DNA from: a virus
Taxonomy: Duplodnaviria; Heunggongvirae; Uroviricota; Caudoviricetes
Virus record (IMG/VR): IMGVR_UViG_2778261541_000003
Reading direction: 5' to 3' (one strand)
DNA length: 8,059 bases
The stretch's first letter is position 1. Each line of letters begins with the position of its first letter. Below, piece after piece: positions 51 through 7,941 of the stretch. A program made the position numbers and the translations under genes. Under the pieces are notes generated by a model. That model did no database searches and had not been told where the DNA came from. It saw only the letters and a list, made by a program, of their open reading frames with translations.

Positions 51-587
51 CTACCAATAATGTAATATTATTGACTTACGTTGTTTTCTTGCTTCGTAGA
101 ATAAACGCTCTTGCGGCGATAATTTGTGAAAACTGCCGGATGCACAATATATGTTTTTTAACTTTTCGCTGGTTGCTTTTATTGTATCTTCTGAGATGTA
201 TTTTAGGTATTTATCCGTATAGATGTTGCTACTATAAGAAATTAATGTTTTGCTGTTGTTGTGATGTGTTGTATTTTTATCGTTGAAGTCTGTATTTTTA
301 TTTACTGTCATTAGGTTTTTAATGATTACATGTAATGCAATAGTCTCCCCATCATCAATTCCATATTTGATGTCATAGTCAGTATATTTATTTGTTATAC
401 CGCTTCCTGATAGCGGCACTATGTACTCTGAGAAAAATGAGTTTGCCGCGTGACCATCAAGAGCAATAGCAGTTTTTTTGTGGTAAAAATAAAACAATAT
501 TGAGAGAGTCAAAATAATAGCGACGCCTAATGCAACCTTTAATATAGATATGGTTTTCAAAATATCGCTCCTTGTTGTAACATACAT
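51..587 (-). CDS. Hypothetical signal-anchored (single N-terminal TM helix) protein, Asn/Lys/Tyr-rich, AT-rich gene
   Basis: ORF track 51..608 (-). Hydrophobic stretch ILKVALGVAIILTLSILFYFY followed by HKK. The track start at 608 is TTG with no SD. In-frame ATG at 587..585 chosen here; an alternative TTG at 560 is preceded by a strong AAGGAG (rc of 568-573) at 7 nt spacing and would give N-terminus MKTISILKV. No family recognised. Confidence 0.55.
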   Translation of the reverse strand: MYVTTRSDILKTISILKVALGVAIILTLSILFYFYHKKTAIALDGHAANSFFSEYIVPLSGSGITNKYTDYDIKYGIDDGETIALHVIIKNLMTVNKNTDFNDKNTTHHNNSKTLISYSSNIYTDKYLKYISEDTIKATSEKLKNIYCASGSFHKLSPQERLFYEARKQRKSIILHYW

Positions 588-650
588 CAGTAATGTGGCG
601 TTTTTCAATTGTATTAAAGACGTGTAATATGTACACGCCTTTTGTTCTTC

Positions 651-1082
651 CTATTCAGGTATTTCAATTCCAAAACCATCTGCATCCCATGAGTTTTCAC
701 AGATGATGTAACCTAGTTCATTGAGCTTATTAAATGTTTTTTCAAAGATGATCTGGTAATCATTATCTGCAAGTGATTCCAGTTCAAGGTCATTAAGGTT
801 TATATAAAAACTTGTATGTCCAAGTGTTATTTTCTTATTGATTTCATTAAAAGTTCTTTTGAAAATAATATTTGATATTTCATGCCGTGCATTGTTTGCA
901 ATAATTTTTGCTTCATAAGCAGAAATTACGTCATCTTCATGAATATCTTTCAGAAAGCTGGTGTCAAGACGTTGTACTATTTCAGCGTTCATTGAGCGCT
1001 TATTGGCTTTTGCAGAAATTTCTATTTTTTCTTTTACTTCAACGGGAAGTCTGATCCTTAGTTGTGGATCTTCTCTGCTCAT
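651..1082 (-). CDS. mnt: Mnt-like ribbon-helix-helix (Arc/MetJ superfamily) repressor with an extra ~95-aa C-terminal domain of unknown function
   Basis: ORF track 651..1112 starts at TTG; in-frame ATG at 1082..1080 preceded by GGTGA. N-terminus MSREDPQLRIRLPVEVKEKIEISAKANKRSMNAEIVQRLD aligns closely with P22 Mnt as I recall it (MARDDPHFNFRMPMEVREKLKFRAEANGRSMNSELLQIV). Divergent from an arc-ant pair as in P22 immI. Confidence 0.8.
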   Translation of the reverse strand: MSREDPQLRIRLPVEVKEKIEISAKANKRSMNAEIVQRLDTSFLKDIHEDDVISAYEAKIIANNARHEISNIIFKRTFNEINKKITLGHTSFYINLNDLELESLADNDYQIIFEKTFNKLNELGYIICENSWDADGFGIEIPE

Positions 1083-1119
1083 GTTCTTCACCAAATATTG
1101 AGTTACTTGCAATGATTGA

Positions 1120-1188
1120 AGTATGCCTCACCGTGTGCTTGACATCAATGACGCACGGTGTGACAATTGTTTTGCCCCACGGTGGGGC
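1120..1188. promoter_or_regulatory. Divergent promoter/operator region between the mnt-like and arc-like genes
   Basis: Plus strand: -35 TTGACA 1139-1144, 17-bp spacer, -10 GACAAT 1162-1167. Minus strand: -35 TTGATG (rc of 1143-1148), 17-bp spacer, -10 CATACT (rc of 1120-1125). 15-bp perfect palindrome GCCCCACGGTGGGGC at 1174-1188 sits at the predicted rightward start site and shares the CCACGGTGG core with the P22 Mnt operator as I recall it. Inverted 7-mers CACCGTG (1129-1135) and CACGGTG (1154-1160) flank the overlapping -35 elements. Confidence 0.5.
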
Positions 1189-1202
1189 TAAGGAGATATG
1201 AA

Positions 1203-1370
1203 ATGCAAAAAGCAAAAGAGATGTGTCAACGACGAGTTCGTTTTCCGGACGATGTGAAGTTAGCTATTGAAAGAAATGGCGAAAAAGAATGCCGAAAGTT
1301 CAATACAGAGATTATCTATCAGCTGAGGAAAGTGTATGGACTCACTGGTGAGAAGAATAGCGTGGCATAA
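1203..1370 (+). CDS. arc: Arc-like ribbon-helix-helix transcriptional repressor (55 aa)
   Basis: ORF track 1167..1370 starts at TTG; in-frame ATG at 1203 has AAGGAG (1190-1195) 7 nt upstream. RRVRFPDDVKLAIERNGEKECRKFNTEIIYQLRK resembles the P22 Arc RHH fold (FNLRWPREV...ENGRSVNSEIYQRV). Size and position (immediately upstream of ant) match arc. Confidence 0.75.
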   Translation: MQKAKEMCQRRVRFPDDVKLAIERNGEKECRKFNTEIIYQLRKVYGLTGEKNSVA

Positions 1371-1442
1371 AACAGCGAAGCCCAACGGTGGCCAGACCGT
1401 CAGGGCTTCAGTATCGTAAAACTACGTATAGGAATTAACGAC
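1367..1442 (-). ncRNA. Candidate sar-like antisense RNA covering the ant ribosome-binding site
   Basis: Minus-strand sigma70-like promoter (-35 TTGATA, 17-bp spacer, -10 TATACT) predicts a start near 1441-1443. The transcript would be antisense to the ant SD (AGGAA 1430-1434) and end at a minus-strand hairpin GAAGCCC...GGGCTTC (1377-1409) followed by GCUGUUUUAU. Predicted length ~75 nt, comparable to P22 sar (~68 nt, from memory). Confidence 0.5.
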
Positions 1443-2387
1443 ATGACGAGTATAGCAACAGCGGTATCTACTATCAACGTGCCATTCCACGGCGCAGAAC
1501 TTTATGTTGTCAATCACAACGGAGAACCGTACACCCCAATGAAACCTATCGTTGAAGGCATGGGTATGGATTGGGCTTCACAGTTTACGAAAATGAAGCA
1601 GCGGTTTAAAACCTGCATTGTGAAAATCACAATGCAGCTTCCTGGGGATGAACAGCGCCGTGAGATTATTTGTTTGGCACTTCGCAAACTTGCTGGCTGG
1701 TTGCAAACCATCAGCCCTAACAAAGTCCGCCCTGAAATCCGCGACAAGGTAATCCAGTATCAGGAAGAGTGTGACGATGTTCTCTACGAGTACTGGACTA
1801 AAGGCCATGTGGTTAACCCACGCAAAGCTAAAAAGGCGTTGCCGGGTAAAATAACCACTGAACAGCAGGAAGCCATTAAACAACTCGTCATGAGTCGCGG
1901 TCAGTCTCTGCCAAAAGAAAAACAGGCTAAGGCGATGATCACCATGTGGTCGTCACTGAAATCTCATTTTGGCTGTTCGTACAAAGAAATTGATGAAGAT
2001 CAATTCGCCGAAGCGTTGTCTCTTGTTGCTCGGGTTCCGCTTGAAGGGGAGCATCTCCCTGCTGGATCTGCATCAGAGAATGATGAAGTGGCAGTCAAGA
2101 TGTTAGATGCGCTTCGTGAGGCAATTAAAACACAGACAAAATGTTATGGTTATCCGCTGAAGCCCGGCTACCGCAGTCTGATTCATTCGCCGTCTGGTGT
2201 TCTCGGCCTGACGGAGAACTCACTGCTGATGAATCTGCTTAACCAGTTACAGGACGACGGGCACGATGTATCGGGCGCGGCGGCGGAGCTGACCACCATG
2301 TTCTGCTACATCGTCGGTGTGAGCAAATGCCTGCGTGATATCCAGACCCACGCGGAGTACATCAACGACAAGGCTGGGTTCTTCTGA
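1443..2387 (+). CDS. ant: Phage antirepressor (Ant; P22-antirepressor-like N-terminal domain plus conserved C-terminal domain)
   Basis: 314-aa ORF; AGGAA 8 nt upstream of ATG. Follows arc as in immI. N-terminal region (...LAGWLQTISPNKVRPEIRDKVIQYQEECDDVLYEYWTKG) resembles the P22 antirepressor N-domain family as I recall it. C-terminal ~80 aa are shared with two other genes in the window. Confidence 0.88.
   Translation: MTSIATAVSTINVPFHGAELYVVNHNGEPYTPMKPIVEGMGMDWASQFTKMKQRFKTCIVKITMQLPGDEQRREIICLALRKLAGWLQTISPNKVRPEIRDKVIQYQEECDDVLYEYWTKGHVVNPRKAKKALPGKITTEQQEAIKQLVMSRGQSLPKEKQAKAMITMWSSLKSHFGCSYKEIDEDQFAEALSLVARVPLEGEHLPAGSASENDEVAVKMLDALREAIKTQTKCYGYPLKPGYRSLIHSPSGVLGLTENSLLMNLLNQLQDDGHDVSGAAAELTTMFCYIVGVSKCLRDIQTHAEYINDKAGFF
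1449..1477 (-). promoter_or_regulatory. Candidate sigma70 promoter for the sar-like antisense RNA
   Basis: -35 TTGATA = rc of 1472-1477; 17-bp spacer; -10 TATACT = rc of 1449-1454. Lies inside the first codons of ant. Confidence 0.5.
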
Positions 2388-2418
2388 CGGGCGGCGGCAC
2401 AGGGATGTGCCTTTAAAT
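2157..2418. repeat. Inverted repeat copy A (~260 bp, ~97% identical to rc of 3882-4141)
   Basis: Direct comparison: 2157-2418 matches the reverse complement of 3882-4141 with a handful of substitutions (e.g. cagtctgattcat vs cagcctgattcac; atcaacgacaaggctggg vs atcagcgacaaagcagga). Covers the last ~77 codons of ant plus its terminator. Confidence 0.9.
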
Positions 2419-2422
2419 AATT
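2396..2422 (+). terminator. Intrinsic terminator downstream of ant
   Basis: Hairpin GGCACA-GGGA-TGTGCC (2396-2411) followed by TTTAAATAATT. Confidence 0.55.
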
Positions 2423-2533
2423 CTGTACAGATTGCAGACTGTGGGTGAATAGCGTACTATTACCTCAAGGGTAAGAAAGCATTTTTAATCTTCCCTTCAA
2501 AACGCGTCCTGTAGCCAAACATGGGAGGACGAA

Positions 2534-3166
2534 ATGAGAACAAATACAACAAGAAAAGCGATGCCATACATTATCCCAGAAGCAGATTTCGATAGAAAAC
2601 TGAACATGTCTGAGAAGAACACTAGTCACACCGAAAGCTACTTAGCGAAAGGTGTGGTTGATTTCGTTCTTCCGGGATTCACAACACCTTATGGTTATCG
2701 CCTTGTAAAATCTTGTAATGGCGATCATTACAGAATGATTACTACCAGCGATACTCCAGAAACGGTGTATGCGGTTAAGTTAATCTTTCGGGAAGATATC
2801 GTCGAAGCCAAAAGAACATGTACGCAGATCATGGTATGGCGTACGCCTAATGTTATTCATGACCGTGCTGTTCATGGTTTGCCTCAGATTTTTTTTCAGT
2901 TCTTCCTAGAGCAATATGCGATCGTTGTATCTGATGAGCAACAAACAATCGATGGGAGGAGATTCTGGGAAAGAATGATTTCTTGGGCTATAAACACCCC
3001 GGGATATAATGTATACGTTTCAGATGGCTCTGAAGAAGATAGACCTCTTAGCTTCATGACATCATGGGATGATTTCTATAGCCAGTGGGCTGATTTCTGT
3101 TGGGGCAGTGATAAAGATGTGCATACCCACAGACTACTGGTTATAAGCAAAGATAAACTGCATTAA
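2534..3166 (+). CDS. Hypothetical protein (210 aa), cassette gene, no recognisable family
   Basis: ATG at 2534 with GGGAGGA SD 5 nt upstream; stop TAA 3164-3166; visibly lower GC than the flanking ant genes. Convergent with the 3187-3630 gene, sharing a bidirectional terminator. Confidence 0.7.
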   Translation: MRTNTTRKAMPYIIPEADFDRKLNMSEKNTSHTESYLAKGVVDFVLPGFTTPYGYRLVKSCNGDHYRMITTSDTPETVYAVKLIFREDIVEAKRTCTQIMVWRTPNVIHDRAVHGLPQIFFQFFLEQYAIVVSDEQQTIDGRRFWERMISWAINTPGYNVYVSDGSEEDRPLSFMTSWDDFYSQWADFCWGSDKDVHTHRLLVISKDKLH

Positions 3167-3169
3167 TAG

Positions 3170-3188
3170 AAGCCCGCGGCGCGGGCTT
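3170..3188. terminator. Bidirectional hairpin terminator between convergent cassette genes
   Basis: AAGCCCGC-ggc-GCGGGCTT perfect 8-bp GC-rich stem at 3170-3188, followed by TTCTTCTTCTTC on the plus strand; overlaps the stop codon of the minus-strand gene. Confidence 0.55.
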
Positions 3189-3630
3189 ATTCTTCTTCTT
3201 CATCATTAAAAAGCGGATTGTTGTTTCCATCTGATGAAAGGAAAGGTATGTGTTCTCTTGAAAATCCAACAATGACAATTTCATTATCATTTTTTGCATA
3301 ATGAATGCATTCATTAGAATGCATTCCGCCAGGGTTGAAATTTAAGTTAATGGTATAATTCTTAAATGTGTTTGGATACCATGTTGGCCCACAATGATAA
3401 TGCCAATAATTCTCTTGCTCATAATTGTCTGAGCCGGGAATTTTATCATGGTTATCATCAACCCACGAGGGCTTGTTTTTTCCAACAAGCGCCCTTCCAT
3501 TGGCAACATCCTCTAAAAACCTTTGTATGATTTTTATTTCATCATCAGTAAGGAAAGGTCCGTCTACAGCGAAAGGGGTGTTGCTTTCCCCATGTAGAAA
3601 ACTATTAGATATTCTAATGTTAAACTTCAA
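3187..3630 (-). CDS. Hypothetical protein (147 aa) with acidic C-terminal tail, no recognisable family; possible toxin or effector partner of the upstream small ORF
   Basis: ORF track 3187..3630. Start is TTG (rc of 3628-3630) with AGGAG SD 6 nt upstream; no in-frame ATG until residue ~103. Ends ...NDEEEE. Contains YWHYHCGPTWYP. Confidence 0.65.
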   Translation of the reverse strand: MKFNIRISNSFLHGESNTPFAVDGPFLTDDEIKIIQRFLEDVANGRALVGKNKPSWVDDNHDKIPGSDNYEQENYWHYHCGPTWYPNTFKNYTINLNFNPGGMHSNECIHYAKNDNEIVIVGFSREHIPFLSSDGNNNPLFNDEEEE

Positions 3631-3650
3631 GGAAAACTCCTGATGTGCTT

Positions 3651-3818
3651 CTATTTGGAGCGAAATGCCGCCTTGAAGTCGCTAAAAGATGTTCCTGTCT
3701 GGTAAACCATATCCTTGTCGCGCTCTTTGCTTGCGCGACCAAGCATAACTTTTCCAATGACATCCCAGCATTGCTTGGCTTGTTCATTGTGCTGAGTACG
3801 ATTTTTCAACGCTGTCAT
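3651..3818 (-). CDS. Small hypothetical protein (55 aa), first gene of a two-gene minus-strand operon; not in the ORF track (below its length cut-off)
   Basis: Hand translation of minus strand from ATG at 3818..3816: MTALKNRTQHNEQAKQCWDVIGKVMLGRASKERDKDMVYQTGTSFSDFKAAFRSK, stop at 3651-3653. Strong AGGAGG SD (rc of 3825-3830) 6 nt upstream. Stop lies 20 nt before the SD/TTG of the next gene. Confidence 0.45.
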   Translation of the reverse strand: MTALKNRTQHNEQAKQCWDVIGKVMLGRASKERDKDMVYQTGTSFSDFKAAFRSK

Positions 3819-3874
3819 ATCGCGCCTCCTTTACCTTTAAGGTAATATTACGCGAATCTACATCACATCGCCAA
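3819..3874 (-). promoter_or_regulatory. Candidate sigma70 promoter with palindromic operator for the 3651-3818 / 3187-3630 operon
   Basis: Minus strand: -35 TTGGCG (rc of 3869-3874), 18-bp spacer, -10 TAATAT (rc of 3845-3850), immediately followed by perfect 15-bp palindrome TTACCTTTAAGGTAA (3831-3845) over the predicted start site, then AGGAGG. Confidence 0.5.
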
Positions 3875-3879
3875 TGATT

Positions 3880-3903
3880 ATTTTAAAGGCACATCCCTGT
3901 GCC
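3880..3903 (-). terminator. Intrinsic terminator downstream of the second antirepressor (inside the repeat)
   Basis: Hairpin at 3888-3903 (GGCACA-loop-TGTGCC) followed on the minus strand by TTTAAAATAAT. Confidence 0.5.
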
Positions 3904-4141
3904 GCCGCCCGTCAGAAGAATCCTGCTTTGTCGCTGATGTACTCCGCGTGCGTCTGGATATCACGCAGGCATTTGCTCACACCGACGATGTAGCAGAACA
4001 TGGTGGTCAGCTCCGCCGCCGCGCCCGATACATCGTGCCCGTCGTCCTGTAACTGGTTAAGCAGATTCATCAGCAGTGAGTTCTCCGTCAGGCCGAGAAC
4101 ACCAGACGGCGAGTGAATCAGGCTGCGGTAGCCGGGCTTCA
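3882..4141. repeat. Inverted repeat copy B (partner of 2157-2418)
   Basis: Reverse complement matches copy A; covers the last ~77 codons of the second antirepressor plus its terminator hairpin. Confidence 0.9.
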
Positions 4142-4568
4142 GTGGGGCGCTGTATTCTTTTTTGTCTTCCAGCTTGATCGCCTCCATAATGGCGGGCATG
4201 AAGCCTGACAAGACCTTCTCCACTTTTGTTTCTTGTTGTCTTAAACGTTTCTCGCATTCAATGAAGTAGCGTCGCACCTGGCGACCTTTTTCGTTACGCT
4301 CGACCATCGCCAGCTCTTTGGCTGTATCAAGGGTGAGGTGGTACTCTTTGCGGTTGTGGCCGCCTCTACCAGATGTTTGCTTTCCCAAATTGGAAAGCAA
4401 AATATAGTCTTGATTTTCAATGAATTCGTATTCTGATATGCGATTTGTAATCCATGCTGCAAACACCTTTTTAACACCTAAAAAAGCGTGCAGATCGCGG
4501 GCATTACAAAGTAGGGCTGTTTCGTTAGATATAGTGCCGTTGAATACGGGGATGAGTTGAGCGTTCAT
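3912..4568 (-). CDS. Phage antirepressor, second copy: different N-terminal domain (Bro-N/ORF6N/Rha-like, tentative) fused to the same C-terminal domain as Ant
   Basis: 218-aa ORF; ATG at 4568..4566 with GGAGA SD (rc of 4576-4580). N-terminal part (...[33 protein letters not shown]...[32 protein letters not shown]) resembles phage antirepressor N-terminal families. C-terminal 77 aa are ~97% identical to Ant (1443-2387). Confidence 0.88.
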
Positions 4569-4596
4569 GATGGCGTCTCCACTTAGCGAATTACAT

Positions 4597-4804
4597 CACC
4601 ACCGCTGAGACCAATCAGATGGTGGTGAACTGAACGGAGTTGGTCTTACCGGCCTAAGTGGTACCGGCGTCCTTTCGGACCCCCATTCAGCCCACCATAA
4701 TTCTGGCATGACTGTGCTATACGCATAAAAAAACCACGTCTGGCGTGGTATGCGCCACTTAGTAATCCGGGAGACCAATCCCGGCACTGGATTTTGCCAG
4801 TGCC
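4597..4804 (-). other. Hairpin-rich untranslated leader upstream of the second antirepressor
   Basis: H1 at 4597-4627: CACCACC-g-CTGA-[gaccaa]-TCAG-at-GGTGGTG. H4 at 4767-4784: CCGGGA-[gaccaa]-TCCCGG, same hexaloop. H5 at 4783-4804: GGCACTGG-attttg-CCAGTGCC. No convincing ORF in this ~400 bp (track ORF 4596..4928 rejected). Confidence 0.45.
4726..4749 (-). terminator. Candidate intrinsic terminator or attenuator within the leader (minus strand)
   Basis: Minus-strand RNA ACCACG-CCAGA-CGUGGU followed by UUUUUUU (plus-strand A-run 4727-4733). Sits ~160 nt upstream of the second antirepressor start codon. Confidence 0.45.
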
Positions 4805-4839
4805 CGATTACTATGGCACAAGAGGAGTGCAATGTAAAT

Positions 4840-4948
4840 TTACCGCAAAGGTAATGATAAACGCGAAGAAATATTAAAATCAACCGTATTTGGTTGATTG
4901 CGTTTAACGCTTGATCACCTGAAAGCAAGATATTACCTTTAAGGTAAT
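4840..4948. promoter_or_regulatory. Two palindromic TTACC-N5-GGTAA operator-like sites
   Basis: Site 1 TTACC-gcaaa-GGTAA at 4840-4854. Site 2 is a perfect 17-bp palindrome ATTACCTTTAAGGTAAT at 4932-4948. Centres are ~94 bp apart. Site 2 lies ~20 bp upstream of the start of ORF 4968-5696 and at the distal end of the minus-strand leader. Confidence 0.5.
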
Positions 4949-4967
4949 GTTATTGTGAGGAAAAGCA

Positions 4968-5696
4968 ATGGAAGTTTTCTGGATAGTTGTTGGTGTGGTT
5001 GCGGTGATTATTTACGTTATCAACCAGAACAAGACTAAGATCTCTGATCGTACGGTCGTTAATCATAACAAAACGATAAAGACCGAAGATGGGGAGATAA
5101 CGATTAATCGTACACAGGTGATAGAACACACCTCTACTCAGTTTCAAAAAACTGGAGGTAATGCGCCTAATATTTCCGCACCTCCTGCTTATGATAGTGC
5201 GGTAATCCAGACATATTATAAACAGCAGGAGTTAGCAAAAGAGAGGCAACTGATTCAGCCAAAGCCGTTTACAGCTGAGCTTCCACCTGGAGTGTCAACG
5301 CGTCCGGCATATCATGGAAGATTCCCTGGTGATGACATATCGTCTCAGTCATCTAAAAAAGCACCTCAGGCAGTATCAGAGCCAGCAAGAATACCTTCTG
5401 TATCGCCGCCAAAAGAAGAATCAGCTAACAGAGTTTCAAGTGGTAGCAAGCAGTGCTTGCGATGCAGAATAAACCTACCATATGAAAAATTCAGGAAATC
5501 GTCAAAAAATCCAGATGGATTGACTAAGTGGTGTGCAAGGTGTCTCGATGGCCCAAAGAATACACGCCATATGAAGTGGTGCCCAATTTGTAATGTCCGC
5601 AGAAAACGAACAAGCTTTTACCCTAATAATCAAAATGCGGATGGCTTAATGGCATGGTGCAAAACGTGCTGGGACGAGCACAAAGCGAAACGATAG
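4968..5696 (+). CDS. Membrane-anchored protein with Pro/Ser-rich linker and C-terminal tandem CxxC-N20-WCxxC (zinc-ribbon-like) motifs; function unknown
   Basis: 242-aa ORF; GAGG 7 nt upstream of ATG. N-terminal TM helix MEVFWIVVGVVAVIIYVI followed by NQNKTK (positive-inside rule suggests a cytoplasmic C-domain). Two Cys motifs: CLRCRINLPYEKFRKSSKNPDGLTKWCARC and CPICNVRRKRTSFYPNNQNADGLMAWCKTC. Terminator follows. Confidence 0.75.
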   Translation: MEVFWIVVGVVAVIIYVINQNKTKISDRTVVNHNKTIKTEDGEITINRTQVIEHTSTQFQKTGGNAPNISAPPAYDSAVIQTYYKQQELAKERQLIQPKPFTAELPPGVSTRPAYHGRFPGDDISSQSSKKAPQAVSEPARIPSVSPPKEESANRVSSGSKQCLRCRINLPYEKFRKSSKNPDGLTKWCARCLDGPKNTRHMKWCPICNVRRKRTSFYPNNQNADGLMAWCKTCWDEHKAKR

Positions 5697-5720
5697 GCCG
5701 CTCTTGCGGCCTTTAAATTT
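5696..5720 (+). terminator. Intrinsic terminator after the Cys-rich membrane protein gene
   Basis: GGCCGC-TCTT-GCGGCC (5696-5711) followed by TTTAAATTT; stem overlaps the stop codon TAG 5694-5696. Confidence 0.6.
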
Positions 5721-5976
5721 ACCGGGTTTGTTTTCGTAATTGTTCGGCACAATAGTCGAGATGTGTTTGCAGATCCCGCATAGACATCTGTGAGCTGGTG
5801 ACGTAGTTAATCAGTGCAGTCAGTTCGGCAAGTGGGCCATCGACATTAAATCCATCCTTATCGAGATCCCGGAGTAATTTCATCAAGTGCGATCCCTCCA
5901 CCAGTGACCTGACGCCTCCCGGCGTGTGAATCCTTTCGGTAAATCCGTCTTCCAGTGGATAGTGATACTGCTGCAT
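5719..5976 (-). CDS. Small stand-alone antirepressor C-terminal-domain protein (85 aa), candidate SOS-inducible mini-antirepressor
   Basis: ORF track 5719..5994 starts at TTG; in-frame ATG at 5976..5974 with GGAGA SD 7 nt upstream. PLEDGFTERIHTPGGVRSLVEGSHLMKLLRDLDKDGFNVDGPLAELTALINYVTSSQMSMRDLQTHLDY aligns over its length with the shared C-terminal domain of the two larger antirepressors ([69 protein letters not shown]). LexA box 20 bp upstream. Confidence 0.8.
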   Translation of the reverse strand: MQQYHYPLEDGFTERIHTPGGVRSLVEGSHLMKLLRDLDKDGFNVDGPLAELTALINYVTSSQMSMRDLQTHLDYCAEQLRKQTR

Positions 5977-5995
5977 CTTATCTTCTCCATGCAAT

Positions 5996-6015
5996 AACTG
6001 TATAAATATACAGTA
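5996..6015. promoter_or_regulatory. LexA (SOS) box
   Basis: AACTGTATAAATATACAGTA at 5996-6015 is CTGT-N8-ACAG with an AT-rich spacer, 18/20 match to the E. coli consensus TACTGTATATATATACAGTA. A TTGATA -35-like hexamer abuts it on the minus-strand upstream side. It lies 20 nt upstream of the 5976 start codon. Confidence 0.8.
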
Positions 6016-6051: not shown

Positions 6052-6118
6052 ATCACCTGAAAGGTAATATCTGTTCGTATTTATGGGTTATCTATCCATA
6101 TATGGTTTTTAAGGTAAT
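6052..6118 (+). promoter_or_regulatory. Repeated motifs upstream of the tail-fibre gene (ATCACCTGAAAG plus two AAGGTAAT half-sites)
   Basis: ATCACCTGAAAG-GTAATAT at 6052-6069 (TCACC-tgaaa-GGTAA, imperfect palindrome) and TTTTTAAGGTAATAG at 6106-6120. Same motif family as 3831-3845, 4840-4854 and 4932-4948. Confidence 0.4.
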
Positions 6119-6171: not shown

Positions 6172-7941
6172 ATGACGGTCTCAACCGAAGTTGACCACAA
6201 CGAATACACAGGTAACGGTGTTACAACGGCATTCCCTTATACCTTCAGGATTTTCCAGAAATCTGATTTAGTAGTGCAGGTTGTTGACCTGAACGAGAAC
6301 ATCACAGAGCTGATTCTTGATACTGATTACATAGTCACTGGTGCGGGAGGGTATAACGGCGGCAATGTAATTCTGTCGAAGGCGTTGGCTAACGGTTATC
6401 AGATTTCTATATCAAGAGAGCTACCGGTTACGCAGGATACCGATCTGCGCAACCAGGGTAAGTTCTTCGCTGAGGTGCATGAAGACGCATTCGATAAACT
6501 GACGATGCTGATCCAGCAGGTTCGCAGTTGGTTTGCCTTGGCGCTGCGCAAGCCATCAACCATCGCTAACTGGTACGACGCGCTGGGGAATTACATTCGC
6601 AACCTGCGCGACCCACGAGACCCGCAGGATGCTGCCACTAAAAATTATGTAGACACGATTAGTAACAACAACTATCTGCACACGTTAAGGGTTCCAGAGT
6701 CATTTACGCGGCAACTCCCTCCTGCTGCAGAACGTGCAAATATGATCCATGCATATGATTATGCAGGTGAGTCCATTATGGTCTTGCCTGAGAGCGGTAG
6801 TGCAGCAGATGTTCTGTTATTGCTGGCGCAACCTGACGGGCTTAAGAGGATTGGCACAAAAGTTAATTACGGTATACCGGTTGGATCTACTTTAACCGAT
6901 GGCGTCACTTTTTCTTTTGATAAGGATAAAGGTTGGCTGAGAATTGGTGGTGCCGATCTCCTACCACTTGACGATGAAAAGAACTTCTGGAGAGGCTTGC
7001 CTACACCGAGAAATTCATGGTGTAACCCGGCTCTTATCGGTGATTACTCAGTATCTTTTAACAGAAACGGTGCGTCATTCGCGGTATACGCCACAACTTT
7101 CGGGCATGACTGCGTTACGTACGGCGCGGCATCTATTGCCGGTGGTGCTGGTTCTGCCACTGGGGACCCAGATCATATTACCTCACCAAATGCTGAGGGG
7201 TACTGCTCTTTTGCATTTGGGAAAAATGTCATTGCTCTTGGAGCAAAATCTGCCGCATTCTGTGAAGAAACGGAAGCGCTTTCAAGGGCGGCTTTTGCAA
7301 CAGGTTATTATACACAAGCCAGACCGGGATACACTACAGACCCCGGCGGGGTTGCAAGTGATGGCATTGGTGCGGCGGCCATTGGATATCGAACTCGCGC
7401 GGCAGGAGATGGCTCTTTTGCTGTAGGTAAGAATATTCAGGCTTATGGTGGTTCGATTGCGATCGGGTGCGGCACTGATGAAGATAACCCAGCAGTCAAT
7501 CCACATAAAGACTCAGTGATGCTGTTTGCAAAATCGCTTATTCCAGGTATATCCGTTGTACCTGGTGGCGGTGGGCCGGAGGAACCATCGCGTGTAGGGG
7601 GGCACACAAAATACCCTAAAGAAATAGTGGATGTAGTACTGGAGGGAGGGGGCCGCGCAGCCATCAGAATACCAGGGATAGGAACTGGTACGATCTTGCT
7701 GCAAGGGACAGATAACGACGGCAATGCACTTTCTATCGCGTCGCTTGAATGGACAAGCGGAAACGGAGGTAGTGCTGTTGGTTCGTTGAAAATAAACATG
7801 AACAACGACGCACCATGCATTGAATTTCTGGAAGATGGCAAGGTGGTTTTGAAGAACGTAAAAACGTTTGAGGAGATAAACGGCGCCCCCGCGGGCACCA
7901 TTTATAAGGATGCTTCAAACTTCCTTAAAATTGTTGTTTAA
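6172..7941 (+). CDS. Tail fibre / tail spike protein: T7 gp17-like N-terminal adaptor domain with Gly/Ala-rich repeat-containing C-terminal region
   Basis: 589-aa ORF; GGAGA 7 nt upstream of ATG. N-terminus (EYTGNGVTTAFPYTFRIFQKSDLVVQVVD...YIRNLRDPRDPQDAATKNYVD) resembles the conserved N-terminal domain of T7 gp17-type tail fibres. C-terminal half has repeats such as CSFAFGKNVIALGAKSAAF and GSFAVGKNIQAYGGSIAIG that resemble YadA-head/Hep_Hag-type beta-roll repeats. Confidence 0.88.
   Translation: MTVSTEVDHNEYTGNGVTTAFPYTFRIFQKSDLVVQVVDLNENITELILDTDYIVTGAGGYNGGNVILSKALANGYQISISRELPVTQDTDLRNQGKFFAEVHEDAFDKLTMLIQQVRSWFALALRKPSTIANWYDALGNYIRNLRDPRDPQDAATKNYVDTISNNNYLHTLRVPESFTRQLPPAAERANMIHAYDYAGESIMVLPESGSAADVLLLLAQPDGLKRIGTKVNYGIPVGSTLTDGVTFSFDKDKGWLRIGGADLLPLDDEKNFWRGLPTPRNSWCNPALIGDYSVSFNRNGASFAVYATTFGHDCVTYGAASIAGGAGSATGDPDHITSPNAEGYCSFAFGKNVIALGAKSAAFCEETEALSRAAFATGYYTQARPGYTTDPGGVASDGIGAAAIGYRTRAAGDGSFAVGKNIQAYGGSIAIGCGTDEDNPAVNPHKDSVMLFAKSLIPGISVVPGGGGPEEPSRVGGHTKYPKEIVDVVLEGGGRAAIRIPGIGTGTILLQGTDNDGNALSIASLEWTSGNGGSAVGSLKINMNNDAPCIEFLEDGKVVLKNVKTFEEINGAPAGTIYKDASNFLKIVV

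Follow-up and report, generated by a model that had tools for sequence, protein, structure and literature searches.

A conserved Ant domain at the ends of two convergent antirepressor genes as a probable recombination-prone mosaic junction in an epsilon15/phiV10/TL-2011b-like prophage

Why should two antirepressor genes that face each other in a prophage, and whose N-terminal domains are unrelated, share nearly the same 3′ end? The question is raised by an 8,059-nucleotide stretch of the IMG/VR virus record IMGVR_UViG_2778261541_000003 (Caudoviricetes), hereafter the window, in which an antirepressor gene at 1443-2387 (plus strand) converges on another at 3912-4568 (minus strand), with a cassette of small genes between them. 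The initial annotation of this DNA had offered two explanations for the resulting inverted repeat, namely modular domain exchange and a segment that homologous recombination between the repeats could invert. We compared about 110 related loci, including 80 IMG/VR loci, and found the kin of the window to be Escherichia coli prophages of the epsilon15/phiV10/TL-2011b group. Our findings suggest, with a probability of about 80%, a recombination-prone mosaic junction made by two convergent genes that carry the same strongly conserved Ant domain at their ends. The arrangement is ordinary phage mosaicism, and the inversion itself is ordinary. What is new is the recognition of the shared segment as a whole SPC32H-type Ant, the occurrence of three paralogues under three control circuits within 8 kb, and the presence of cargo promoters with a probable operator for the prophage repressor Rep.

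The inverted repeat and the domain it encodes

A repeat search of the window delimited the arms at 2154-2417 (plus strand) and 3882-4145 (minus strand), each 264 nt long, 97% complementary to one another and separated by 1464 nt. This confirms the near-identical (~97%) inverted copies first noticed there, with coordinates refined within 4 nt. The alignment of one arm with the other has no gaps and its borders are sharp at either side. Each arm comprises the final 77 codons of its gene, the stop codon and a short hairpin, and all eight mismatches lie within the coding part, seven of them synonymous and one an N/S replacement. The description of the arms as the last ~77 residues of two antirepressors with unrelated N-termini also holds, given that the left protein (314 aa) carries a P22_AR_N domain (PF10547, E 1e-44, residues 12-123) and the right one (218 aa) an AntA domain (PF08346, E 4e-26). 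Similarly, the segment between the arms is indeed poorer in GC, at 0.36-0.42 versus 0.55-0.58. The terminator hairpin ascribed to each arm is present, at 2396-2411 and 3888-3903, but its strength as a terminator was overstated: a 6-bp stem of -10.1 kcal/mol (z ~ -0.5) followed by UUU alone is a leaky terminator at best.

Both C-termini, at residues 232-312 of the left protein and 135-216 of the right one, match phrog_450, an 88-residue family labeled “unknown function,” which also matches a separate open reading frame (ORF) of 91 aa at 5719-5994 on the minus strand. This small ORF matches chain E of Protein Data Bank (PDB) entry 5D50, the Ant protein of the epsilon15-like Salmonella phage SPC32H, with an E-value of 2e-46, and the arm-encoded C-terminus of the left antirepressor aligns to residues 3-79 of the 86 in the same chain (E 9e-15). 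Because 5D50_E matches both the small ORF and the shared C-terminus, each arm encodes a complete SPC32H-type Ant domain, so that the window holds three Ant paralogues; the arm-encoded domain and the small Ant of the window share 46% identity. In the left protein the SPC32H-type domain occupies the place of P22_AR_C, for which the Pfam scan gave no match there (it returned P22_AR_N alone). Nor did Pfam return a significant match for the Ant domain in 5719-5994 or in the arms, where a sub-threshold DUF724 was the only hit. There is thus an annotation gap: phrog_450 is labeled as being of unknown function despite a solved structure, and Pfam misses the functional domain.

The Ant-Rep system of SPC32H was reportedly described by Kim and Ryu in 2013 and by Kim et al. 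in 2016, with the PDB structures 5D50 and 5D4Z. Passages of three articles (PMC7380047, PMC9638917, PMC9986798) portray the SPC32H Ant as a tetramer that takes Rep tetramers apart. The window resembles this system in that its 91-aa ORF adjoins the tail-fibre gene and lies behind a LexA box, and in that its arm-encoded domain spans nearly the whole Ant chain. It differs in possessing two extra Ant copies as the C-termini of proteins of 218-314 aa; these fused copies have Bro-N, AntA or P22_AR_N N-termini, are under controls other than LexA, and have diverged from the stand-alone Ant to the extent given above. By homology, the fused C-terminal domain would bind the prophage repressor Rep. The rep gene lies outside the window; in TL-2011b, a close relative, gp10 is a homologue of SPC32H Rep (5D50_A, E 7e-42).

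Fusions of this kind are common in the group. Among 128 ORFs carrying the domain, its N-terminal partner is Bro-N in 82, P22_AR_N in 22, AntA in 21 and an ORF6N-like domain in 1. A search of 1.84 billion representative proteins gave 33 members of the Ant-domain family, most of them stand-alone, and in the several fusions among them (183-319 aa) the domain is always at the extreme C-terminus. The last 77 residues of the right antirepressor differ at two positions from those of ORF4 of phage vB_EcoP_ZX5, which has a Bro-N N-terminus and whose overexpression lowered lysogen titres from 1e9 to 1e6 (PMC9782041). Because ORF4, with nearly the same C-terminus, reduces lysogeny, the large fusions, too, probably act as antirepressors. 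The “antirepressor” labels of prophage genes often rest on Bro-N, AntA or P22_AR_N N-termini, and the mode of repressor recognition is mostly obscure. In this phage group the common part corresponds to a whole, structurally solved Rep-binding protein, which leads to the testable idea that the 77-residue C-terminus is the warhead and that the N-termini, together with the leaders upstream, provide differing inputs.

The resemblance between the arms could have arisen in this genome by recent duplication or ongoing gene conversion, with one antirepressor 3′ end copied onto the other, or it could reflect selection on the protein. The allelic variation of the arms bears on this choice. The coding part of the arm occurs as 94 distinct DNA alleles that encode 10 proteins, with a pS of 0.135 and a pN/pS of 0.03. 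Over 243 nt, the mean number of differences between the arms of a single genome is 15.3 (32 distinct arm pairs), and arms from different genomes differ at 13.4-14.7 positions when they occupy the same side and at 16.5 when left is compared with right. We rejected concerted evolution of the arms because within-genome divergence about equals between-genome divergence, which excludes any strong effect of this kind. The window pair itself, with 8 differences over 264 nt and 7 over the 243 nt in register, lies at the similar end of the range and below the two-arm mean, and the arms of the relative ETEC4085 differ at only 4 positions, which could be a conversion tract; these are the points that speak for copying. 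Against it, the right arm of the window is identical to that of the relative UTAK-6 at all diagnostic sites and continues into a flank that is contiguous at 99.6%, and the left arm carries alleles that are elsewhere linked to a cargo module encoding a 210-aa protein, which matches an origin of each arm from a different donor lineage. Moreover, seven synonymous differences out of eight are what would be expected of independently inherited alleles under purifying selection. We hold duplication or conversion to be quite improbable; the likeness of the arms is due to strong purifying selection, not to recent duplication.

Exchange of cargo and inversion between the arms

The relatives fall into four layouts. 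The first, found in epsilon15, has the small ant gene only. In the second, the large antirepressor proximal to the tail-fibre gene is the only large one (approximately 49 of the 80 IMG/VR loci, and phiV10-like loci as well), and in the third this role is taken by the P22-type large antirepressor, as in locus L065. The fourth has both large antirepressors, and hence the inverted repeat, and comprises about 35 loci. Because each large gene occurs in relatives without the other, or neither occurs, the two genes are independent additions, and the repeat follows from having both. In L065 (6002-6582) the P22-type antirepressor abuts the small ant gene directly, with neither a cassette nor a second large gene.

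Homology to the window stops at the arms. On the left, it ends at 2410 in 28 of the 32 loci that have the window's left antirepressor; on the right, it begins at 3877-3889 in 19 of the 24 loci with the AntA antirepressor. At least 20 types of module follow the arm, including those with a YafO toxin, DUF4760 and DUF2335, and the exact 314-aa left protein occurs with no fewer than seven cassettes, its partner being either AntA or Bro-N. For instance, locus L104 (8019-10625) has a 2.7-kb cassette in which YafO and DUF2335 modules stand in tandem. The suggestion of modular domain exchange was therefore borne out, since the C-terminal module is found on four N-terminal classes in 128 ORFs, with at least seven cassettes and with breaks at the arm ends. 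A common end of homology, followed by diverse, self-contained cargo of low GC with its own promoter and operator and a terminator, is the pattern of mosaic boundaries and morons: the conserved arm is a mosaic boundary at which cargo and N-terminal domain are exchanged among phages.

The closest known parallels are the “boundary sequences” and morons of lambdoid phages, annotated for example in CUS-3. There too, a short conserved stretch flanks swappable genes and homology breaks at it, and the cargo of the window is likewise lower in GC and has its own promoter and terminator. The window differs in that a functional protein domain and a hairpin make up its conserved stretch, whereas the boundary sequences are non-coding linkers; in that the stretch is present twice and inverted, so that inversion is also possible; and in that its cargo promoters carry a probable repressor operator.

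The cassette of the window is itself a product of such exchange. It had been described as three genes with their own promoter, operator and terminator; the genes and signals are there, but they make up two convergent units rather than a single one. The left unit consists of the 210-aa gene (2534-3166, plus strand), and the right unit of a 55-aa gene (3651-3818, minus strand) followed by a 147-aa gene (3187-3630, minus strand). Each has a promoter with an operator, and they have in common a palindromic bidirectional terminator at 3170-3188 (-14 kcal/mol). Positions 56-3191 of the window align with SCU-387 and positions 3170-4860 with UTAK-6 at 99.6%, so that the SCU-387-like half meets the UTAK-6-like half at the palindromic terminator. 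In each of these relatives the terminator parts the module from a gene for a small transmembrane protein, which is absent from the window. Because the two alignments overlap at the terminator, we conclude that the cassette is two antirepressor-downstream modules fused tail-to-tail at this palindrome.

The segment between the arms is also inverted in some natural genomes, albeit uncommonly. UTAK-6 and ETEC4085 (L002 and L003 in our set, in which TL-2011b is L091) share the same 992-nt cassette, whose three proteins are the same in both but reversed in order and strand. Their DNA is collinear as far as 3850 and again from 4857 onward, with 3593-5113 aligning in reverse; the overlaps coincide exactly with the arms. 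When the window's left junction was flipped synthetically, so that the left antirepressor was followed by the 55/147-aa module, it found end-to-end matches in ETEC4085 and ETEC1749; the native right junction is fully matched in 9 genomes, and in many more with Bro-N partners. The 210-aa module usually lies behind the tail-fibre-proximal antirepressor, and its placement in the window is rare. Its synthetic flipped junction matches 14 genomes at ~99.4% over the full length, and dozens more with Bro-N partners, and the module stands behind the P22-type left gene in one complete genome, SCU-387, and behind a distal Bro-N gene in L094 and L101. The proposal that recombination between the repeats can invert the segment is thus supported by the UTAK-6/ETEC4085 breakpoints inside the arms and, for the 210-aa module, by SCU-387, L094 and L101. 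A single orientation throughout, with no cassette-free variant, had been named as the outcome that would speak against it; related prophages instead include forms in which the cassette is present, flipped or absent (the last in epsilon15 and L065).

The arm polymorphisms of UTAK-6 and ETEC4085 were uninformative as to a single crossover point, the alleles being mosaic. The difference between L013 and L024/L051 was considered as a second arm-bounded inversion and rejected: it is a larger inversion of 3.26 kb (L013 5229-8487 versus L024) that spans both antirepressor genes and the cassette and ends at inverted leader repeats of ~270 nt (isrK/C4-like). These leader repeats are a second, outer recombining pair where both antirepressors have P1-type leaders.

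Inversion could in principle be a programmed, often reversible switch, a form of phase variation that toggles cargo expression. Both orientations do occur naturally and their breakpoints fall in the arms, and the arm hairpins are weak enough that read-through into the cassette could vary with orientation. The distribution of orientations argues otherwise. Among the 46 two-arm loci, an outgoing operator unit leaves only the proximal arm in 29 (the canonical state), only the distal arm in 5 (inverted) and both arms in 2 (the window and ETEC1749, which are double), and 10 have no exact match; for the unbiased IMG/VR loci the inverted share is about 1 in 25. Near-identical genomes agree in orientation, as seen in CRKP-1, CREC-U1, CREC-U3 and CREC-36 and in strains 439, 446, 447 and 463. 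The two cargo promoters are part of the invertible segment and travel with their genes. No recombinase was found among the ORFs of the window in Pfam and PHROG scans, which covered the larger ORFs except the tail-fibre gene, named through the annotation of relatives. The repeat, moreover, is 264 nt of coding DNA under protein-level selection and not a pair of short crossover sites. We consider a programmed switch very improbable.

The same features separate the locus from the site-specific invertible segments of phages and bacteria, such as Mu G and P1 C with Gin and Cin, Hin, and the shufflons. The likeness is that inverted repeats lie in coding sequence and both orientations are found. In contrast to those systems, the window has no invertase gene in the scanned ORFs, its arms measure 264 nt versus ~26-34 bp, its inversion alters no protein C-terminus, and its orientation is strongly biased and clonally stable. 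The arms, at 97% identity, and the natural variants UTAK-6 and ETEC4085, which break inside them, fit homologous recombination, and TL-2011b encodes RecT and exonuclease VIII. We infer that the inversion is carried out by general homologous recombination (RecA, or a phage RecT/exonuclease pair) and not by an invertase, because the orientation bias, the clonal stability, the lack of a recombinase in the window scans and the RecT of TL-2011b point to occasional general recombination rather than a programmed switch. It had been stated that inversion would alter no protein and would change the orientation of the cassette relative to outside transcription. To this it can be added that a crossover within the arms could swap the single N/S difference between the two proteins.

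Another explanation would attribute the inversions of the relatives to assembly errors over the 264-bp repeat, with the orientation of the cassette fixed and the repeat reduced to paralogue conservation. Flipped cases are few, and a 1-kb segment flanked by inverted repeats of this length can be turned the wrong way by a short-read assembler. Nevertheless, the flipped cases occur in RefSeq genomes at the “complete” level, from several independent projects and with several cassette types (ETEC4085, ETEC1749, SCU-387, L094 and L101). The double cassettes of the window and ETEC1749 have promoter/operator units leaving both arms, with left-arm cargo in either orientation, and the left half of the window is contiguous with SCU-387 across the arm into the 210-aa gene. 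We consider assembly error very improbable.

Control circuits, a probable Rep operator and the overall explanation

The three Ant paralogues are under three distinct control circuits within 8 kb: LexA, P22-style immI and P1-style immI. The stand-alone copy is the orthologue of SPC32H Ant. Its likely start is the ATG at 5976, giving 85 aa, and relatives carry it as an annotated gene of 258 nt. Directly upstream of it lies a perfect LexA box, CTGTATAAATATACAG, at 5998-6013, which is also present in epsilon15. A scan of the whole window found 4 LexA-box matches versus 2.75 expected, with no overall enrichment; among these matches the perfect site at 5998, conserved in epsilon15, is the only meaningful one. 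From its sequence context, the small ant gene at 5719-6013, adjoining the tail-fibre gene, is predicted to be the SOS-inducible antirepressor of the prophage. LexA control applies to this copy and not to the two fused ones, which have sar or C4/isrK leaders instead.

The left antirepressor belongs to a unit of the P22 immI type. It is preceded by a gene for an Mnt-like Arc-family repressor at 651-1112 on the minus strand (PF03869 Arc, E 1e-14; “Arc family DNA-binding protein” in relatives) and by a small Arc-like gene at 1167-1370 on the plus strand, which has a weak match to the Arc-like repressor family phrog_228 and is annotated as “Arc-like repressor” in TL-2011b. A sar antisense RNA at 1374-1441 on the minus strand, detected over its full length (Rfam RF00262, 45.2 bits versus a gathering score of 43), is placed between the small arc-like gene and the antirepressor and overlaps the start region of the latter. 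Mnt/Arc ribbon-helix-helix repressors, sar and a P22_AR_N antirepressor therefore occur in the order known from phage P22 (mnt - arc - sar - ant), with sar above the Rfam threshold. The window differs from P22 in that its left protein has the SPC32H-type Ant domain at the C-terminus, with no P22_AR_C detected, and in that its backbone is that of an epsilon15-like podovirus.

Truncated P22_AR_N fragments without the C-terminus adjoin Bro-N or AntA antirepressors in several relatives (L006 7220-7606, L007 2350-2616, and also L021, L044, L051, L061, L072, L077, L079 and L101). Wherever their orientation is readable (L006, L007 and L101), they are inverted relative to the left gene of the window, and they look like scars from earlier rearrangements at the locus.

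The right antirepressor has a leader of the P1 type at 4618-4854 on the minus strand. It contains a probable Rep operator (4840-4854), a promoter (4838-4810), the isrK/c4-a1b1 region (4727-4816) and the C4 antisense RNA (4618-4702). In Rfam, isrK (RF01394) scores 67.7 bits at 4727-4803 against a threshold of 50, C4 (RF01695) scores 61.2 bits against 45, and c4-a1b1 (RF03163, 4764-4816) stays below its gathering score of 46.7 with 39.9 bits. All three are on the minus strand and arranged as in the immI of P1/P7, the C4 match being well above threshold. The AntA gene of the window thus resembles both P1/P7 immI, in which C4 controls ant, and the IsrK of Salmonella Gifsy-1 in having C4 and isrK upstream in the expected order, and a probable repressor operator in the antirepressor promoter is a further likeness to P1/P7. 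It differs in the sub-threshold a1b1 match, in having no identified icd-like ORF (the ORF list holds no co-directional ORF of at least 40 aa within 4569-4617, and no search aimed at icd was made), and in that the right protein ends in the Ant domain of another phage lineage.

A further element connects the circuits with the cargo. Five copies of the palindrome TTACC-N5-GGTAA were counted in the window versus 0.2 expected: two on the inner side of the arms, at 2460 and 3831, two in the region of the right leader, at 4840 and 4933, and one close to the small ant gene, at 6053. Both cassette copies overlap the -10 element of a plausible promoter. On the left, the candidate promoter TTGCAG-17 nt-TACTAT (2432-2474, plus strand), read from the sequence, is overlapped by the palindrome TTACCTCAAGGGTAA at 2460-2474; on the right, TTGGCG-18 nt-TAATAT (3831-3874, minus strand), recognized in the same way, is overlapped by the copy at 3831-3845. 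In the epsilon15 record, ATTACCTGTAAGGTAAT, which is the same sequence, bears the label of a “repressor” binding site, and the complete genome of TL-2011b holds 14 copies versus 0.7 expected, with pairs on either side of gp10 (region L091 5172-5994). Because of this annotation, the enrichment in TL-2011b and the pairs that flank the Rep homologue, the palindrome is probably the Rep operator. If it is, both cargo units would be repressed by Rep, that is, the cargo would be part of the Rep regulon.

These elements can be combined into one explanation. The window is an anti-immunity region, belonging to an E. coli prophage of the epsilon15/phiV10/TL-2011b kind, with three domains of the Rep-binding Ant type, one of them alone behind a LexA box and two as the C-termini of large convergent genes, each of which came with its own control circuit: the P22-type mnt/arc/sar on the left, and the P1-type C4/isrK leader with a Rep operator on the right. 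Convergence, together with purifying selection on the Ant domains, makes the 3′ ends form the 264-bp inverted repeat. Since the genes converge and the domains are strongly conserved, the repeat is a by-product, not a dedicated site. Beyond each arm follow a promoter overlapped by the palindrome and then interchangeable cargo, with the arm as the exchange boundary. Inversion would keep each promoter with its genes and would change only which antirepressor operon reads through the weak hairpin into which module.

Several points weigh against this account. The binding of Rep by the fused domains is deduced from homology, and its binding to TTACC-N5-GGTAA from an annotation and the clustering of sites; moreover, 10 of the 46 two-arm loci have no exact operator match next to either arm. 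The inversion was seen in assembled genomes of relatives rather than in reads of the source strain, and these flipped arrangements come from public assemblies, where, in principle, short-read assembly could have set the orientation wrongly at a repeat of 264 bp. The arm alleles are mosaic, so a single-crossover history is not reconstructable. Finally, no other record has the exact configuration of the window: nothing in the phage or E. coli collections covers at least 80% of the window, and its cassette is absent from all 18 contigs with the exact left antirepressor.

The mosaic junction made by the two Ant-ended genes is of interest as a precise hotspot for the swap, and occasional inversion, of accessory genes, including the YafO toxin module, in widespread E. 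coli prophages, and the repeat is of note to genome assemblers and annotators. A bolder extension, which we regard as unlikely, is that the Ant arm, the leaky hairpin and the Rep-operated promoter form a standard “socket,” with sensing modules (LexA, P22-type or P1-type immI) upstream and varied cargo downstream, so that inversion between two facing sockets would rewire which signal reads into which cargo. If true, it would imply heritable heterogeneity among lysogens, with cargo such as toxins or the GNAT-like protein plugged behind one repressor-binding warhead.

Cargo proteins and neighbouring genes

The cargo proteins of the window have no matches in PADLOC, NCBIfam or Pfam. The 210-aa protein belongs to phrog_1349 and has a GNAT-like predicted fold. 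The 147-aa protein (phrog_5954) is the same as WP_000671196, and the 55-aa protein (phrog_8607) the same as WP_000125783, both of which are found in UTAK-6 and ETEC4085. AlphaFold, run on the single sequence of the 147-aa protein, gave no usable model (pLDDT 44). The pair of genes for the 55-aa and 147-aa proteins sits in the slot that is held in TL-2011b by a small ORF and a YafO toxin, and its layout is toxin-antitoxin-like.

Between the right leader and the small ant gene, a gene at 4968-5696 encodes a 242-aa protein whose N-terminus is hydrophobic and whose C-terminal part, rich in cysteines, has weak matches of the endonuclease VII/HNH-like and Stc1 kinds. A probable Rep-type operator lies ahead of the gene. 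Not all relatives have it; UTAK-6, for one, lacks the gene. The tail-fibre gene follows at 6172-7941. Its N-terminal ~480 nt are conserved across relatives (72-100%), and the remainder is replaced by different receptor-binding domains, a form of tail-fibre mosaicism that is typical of tailspike modularity.

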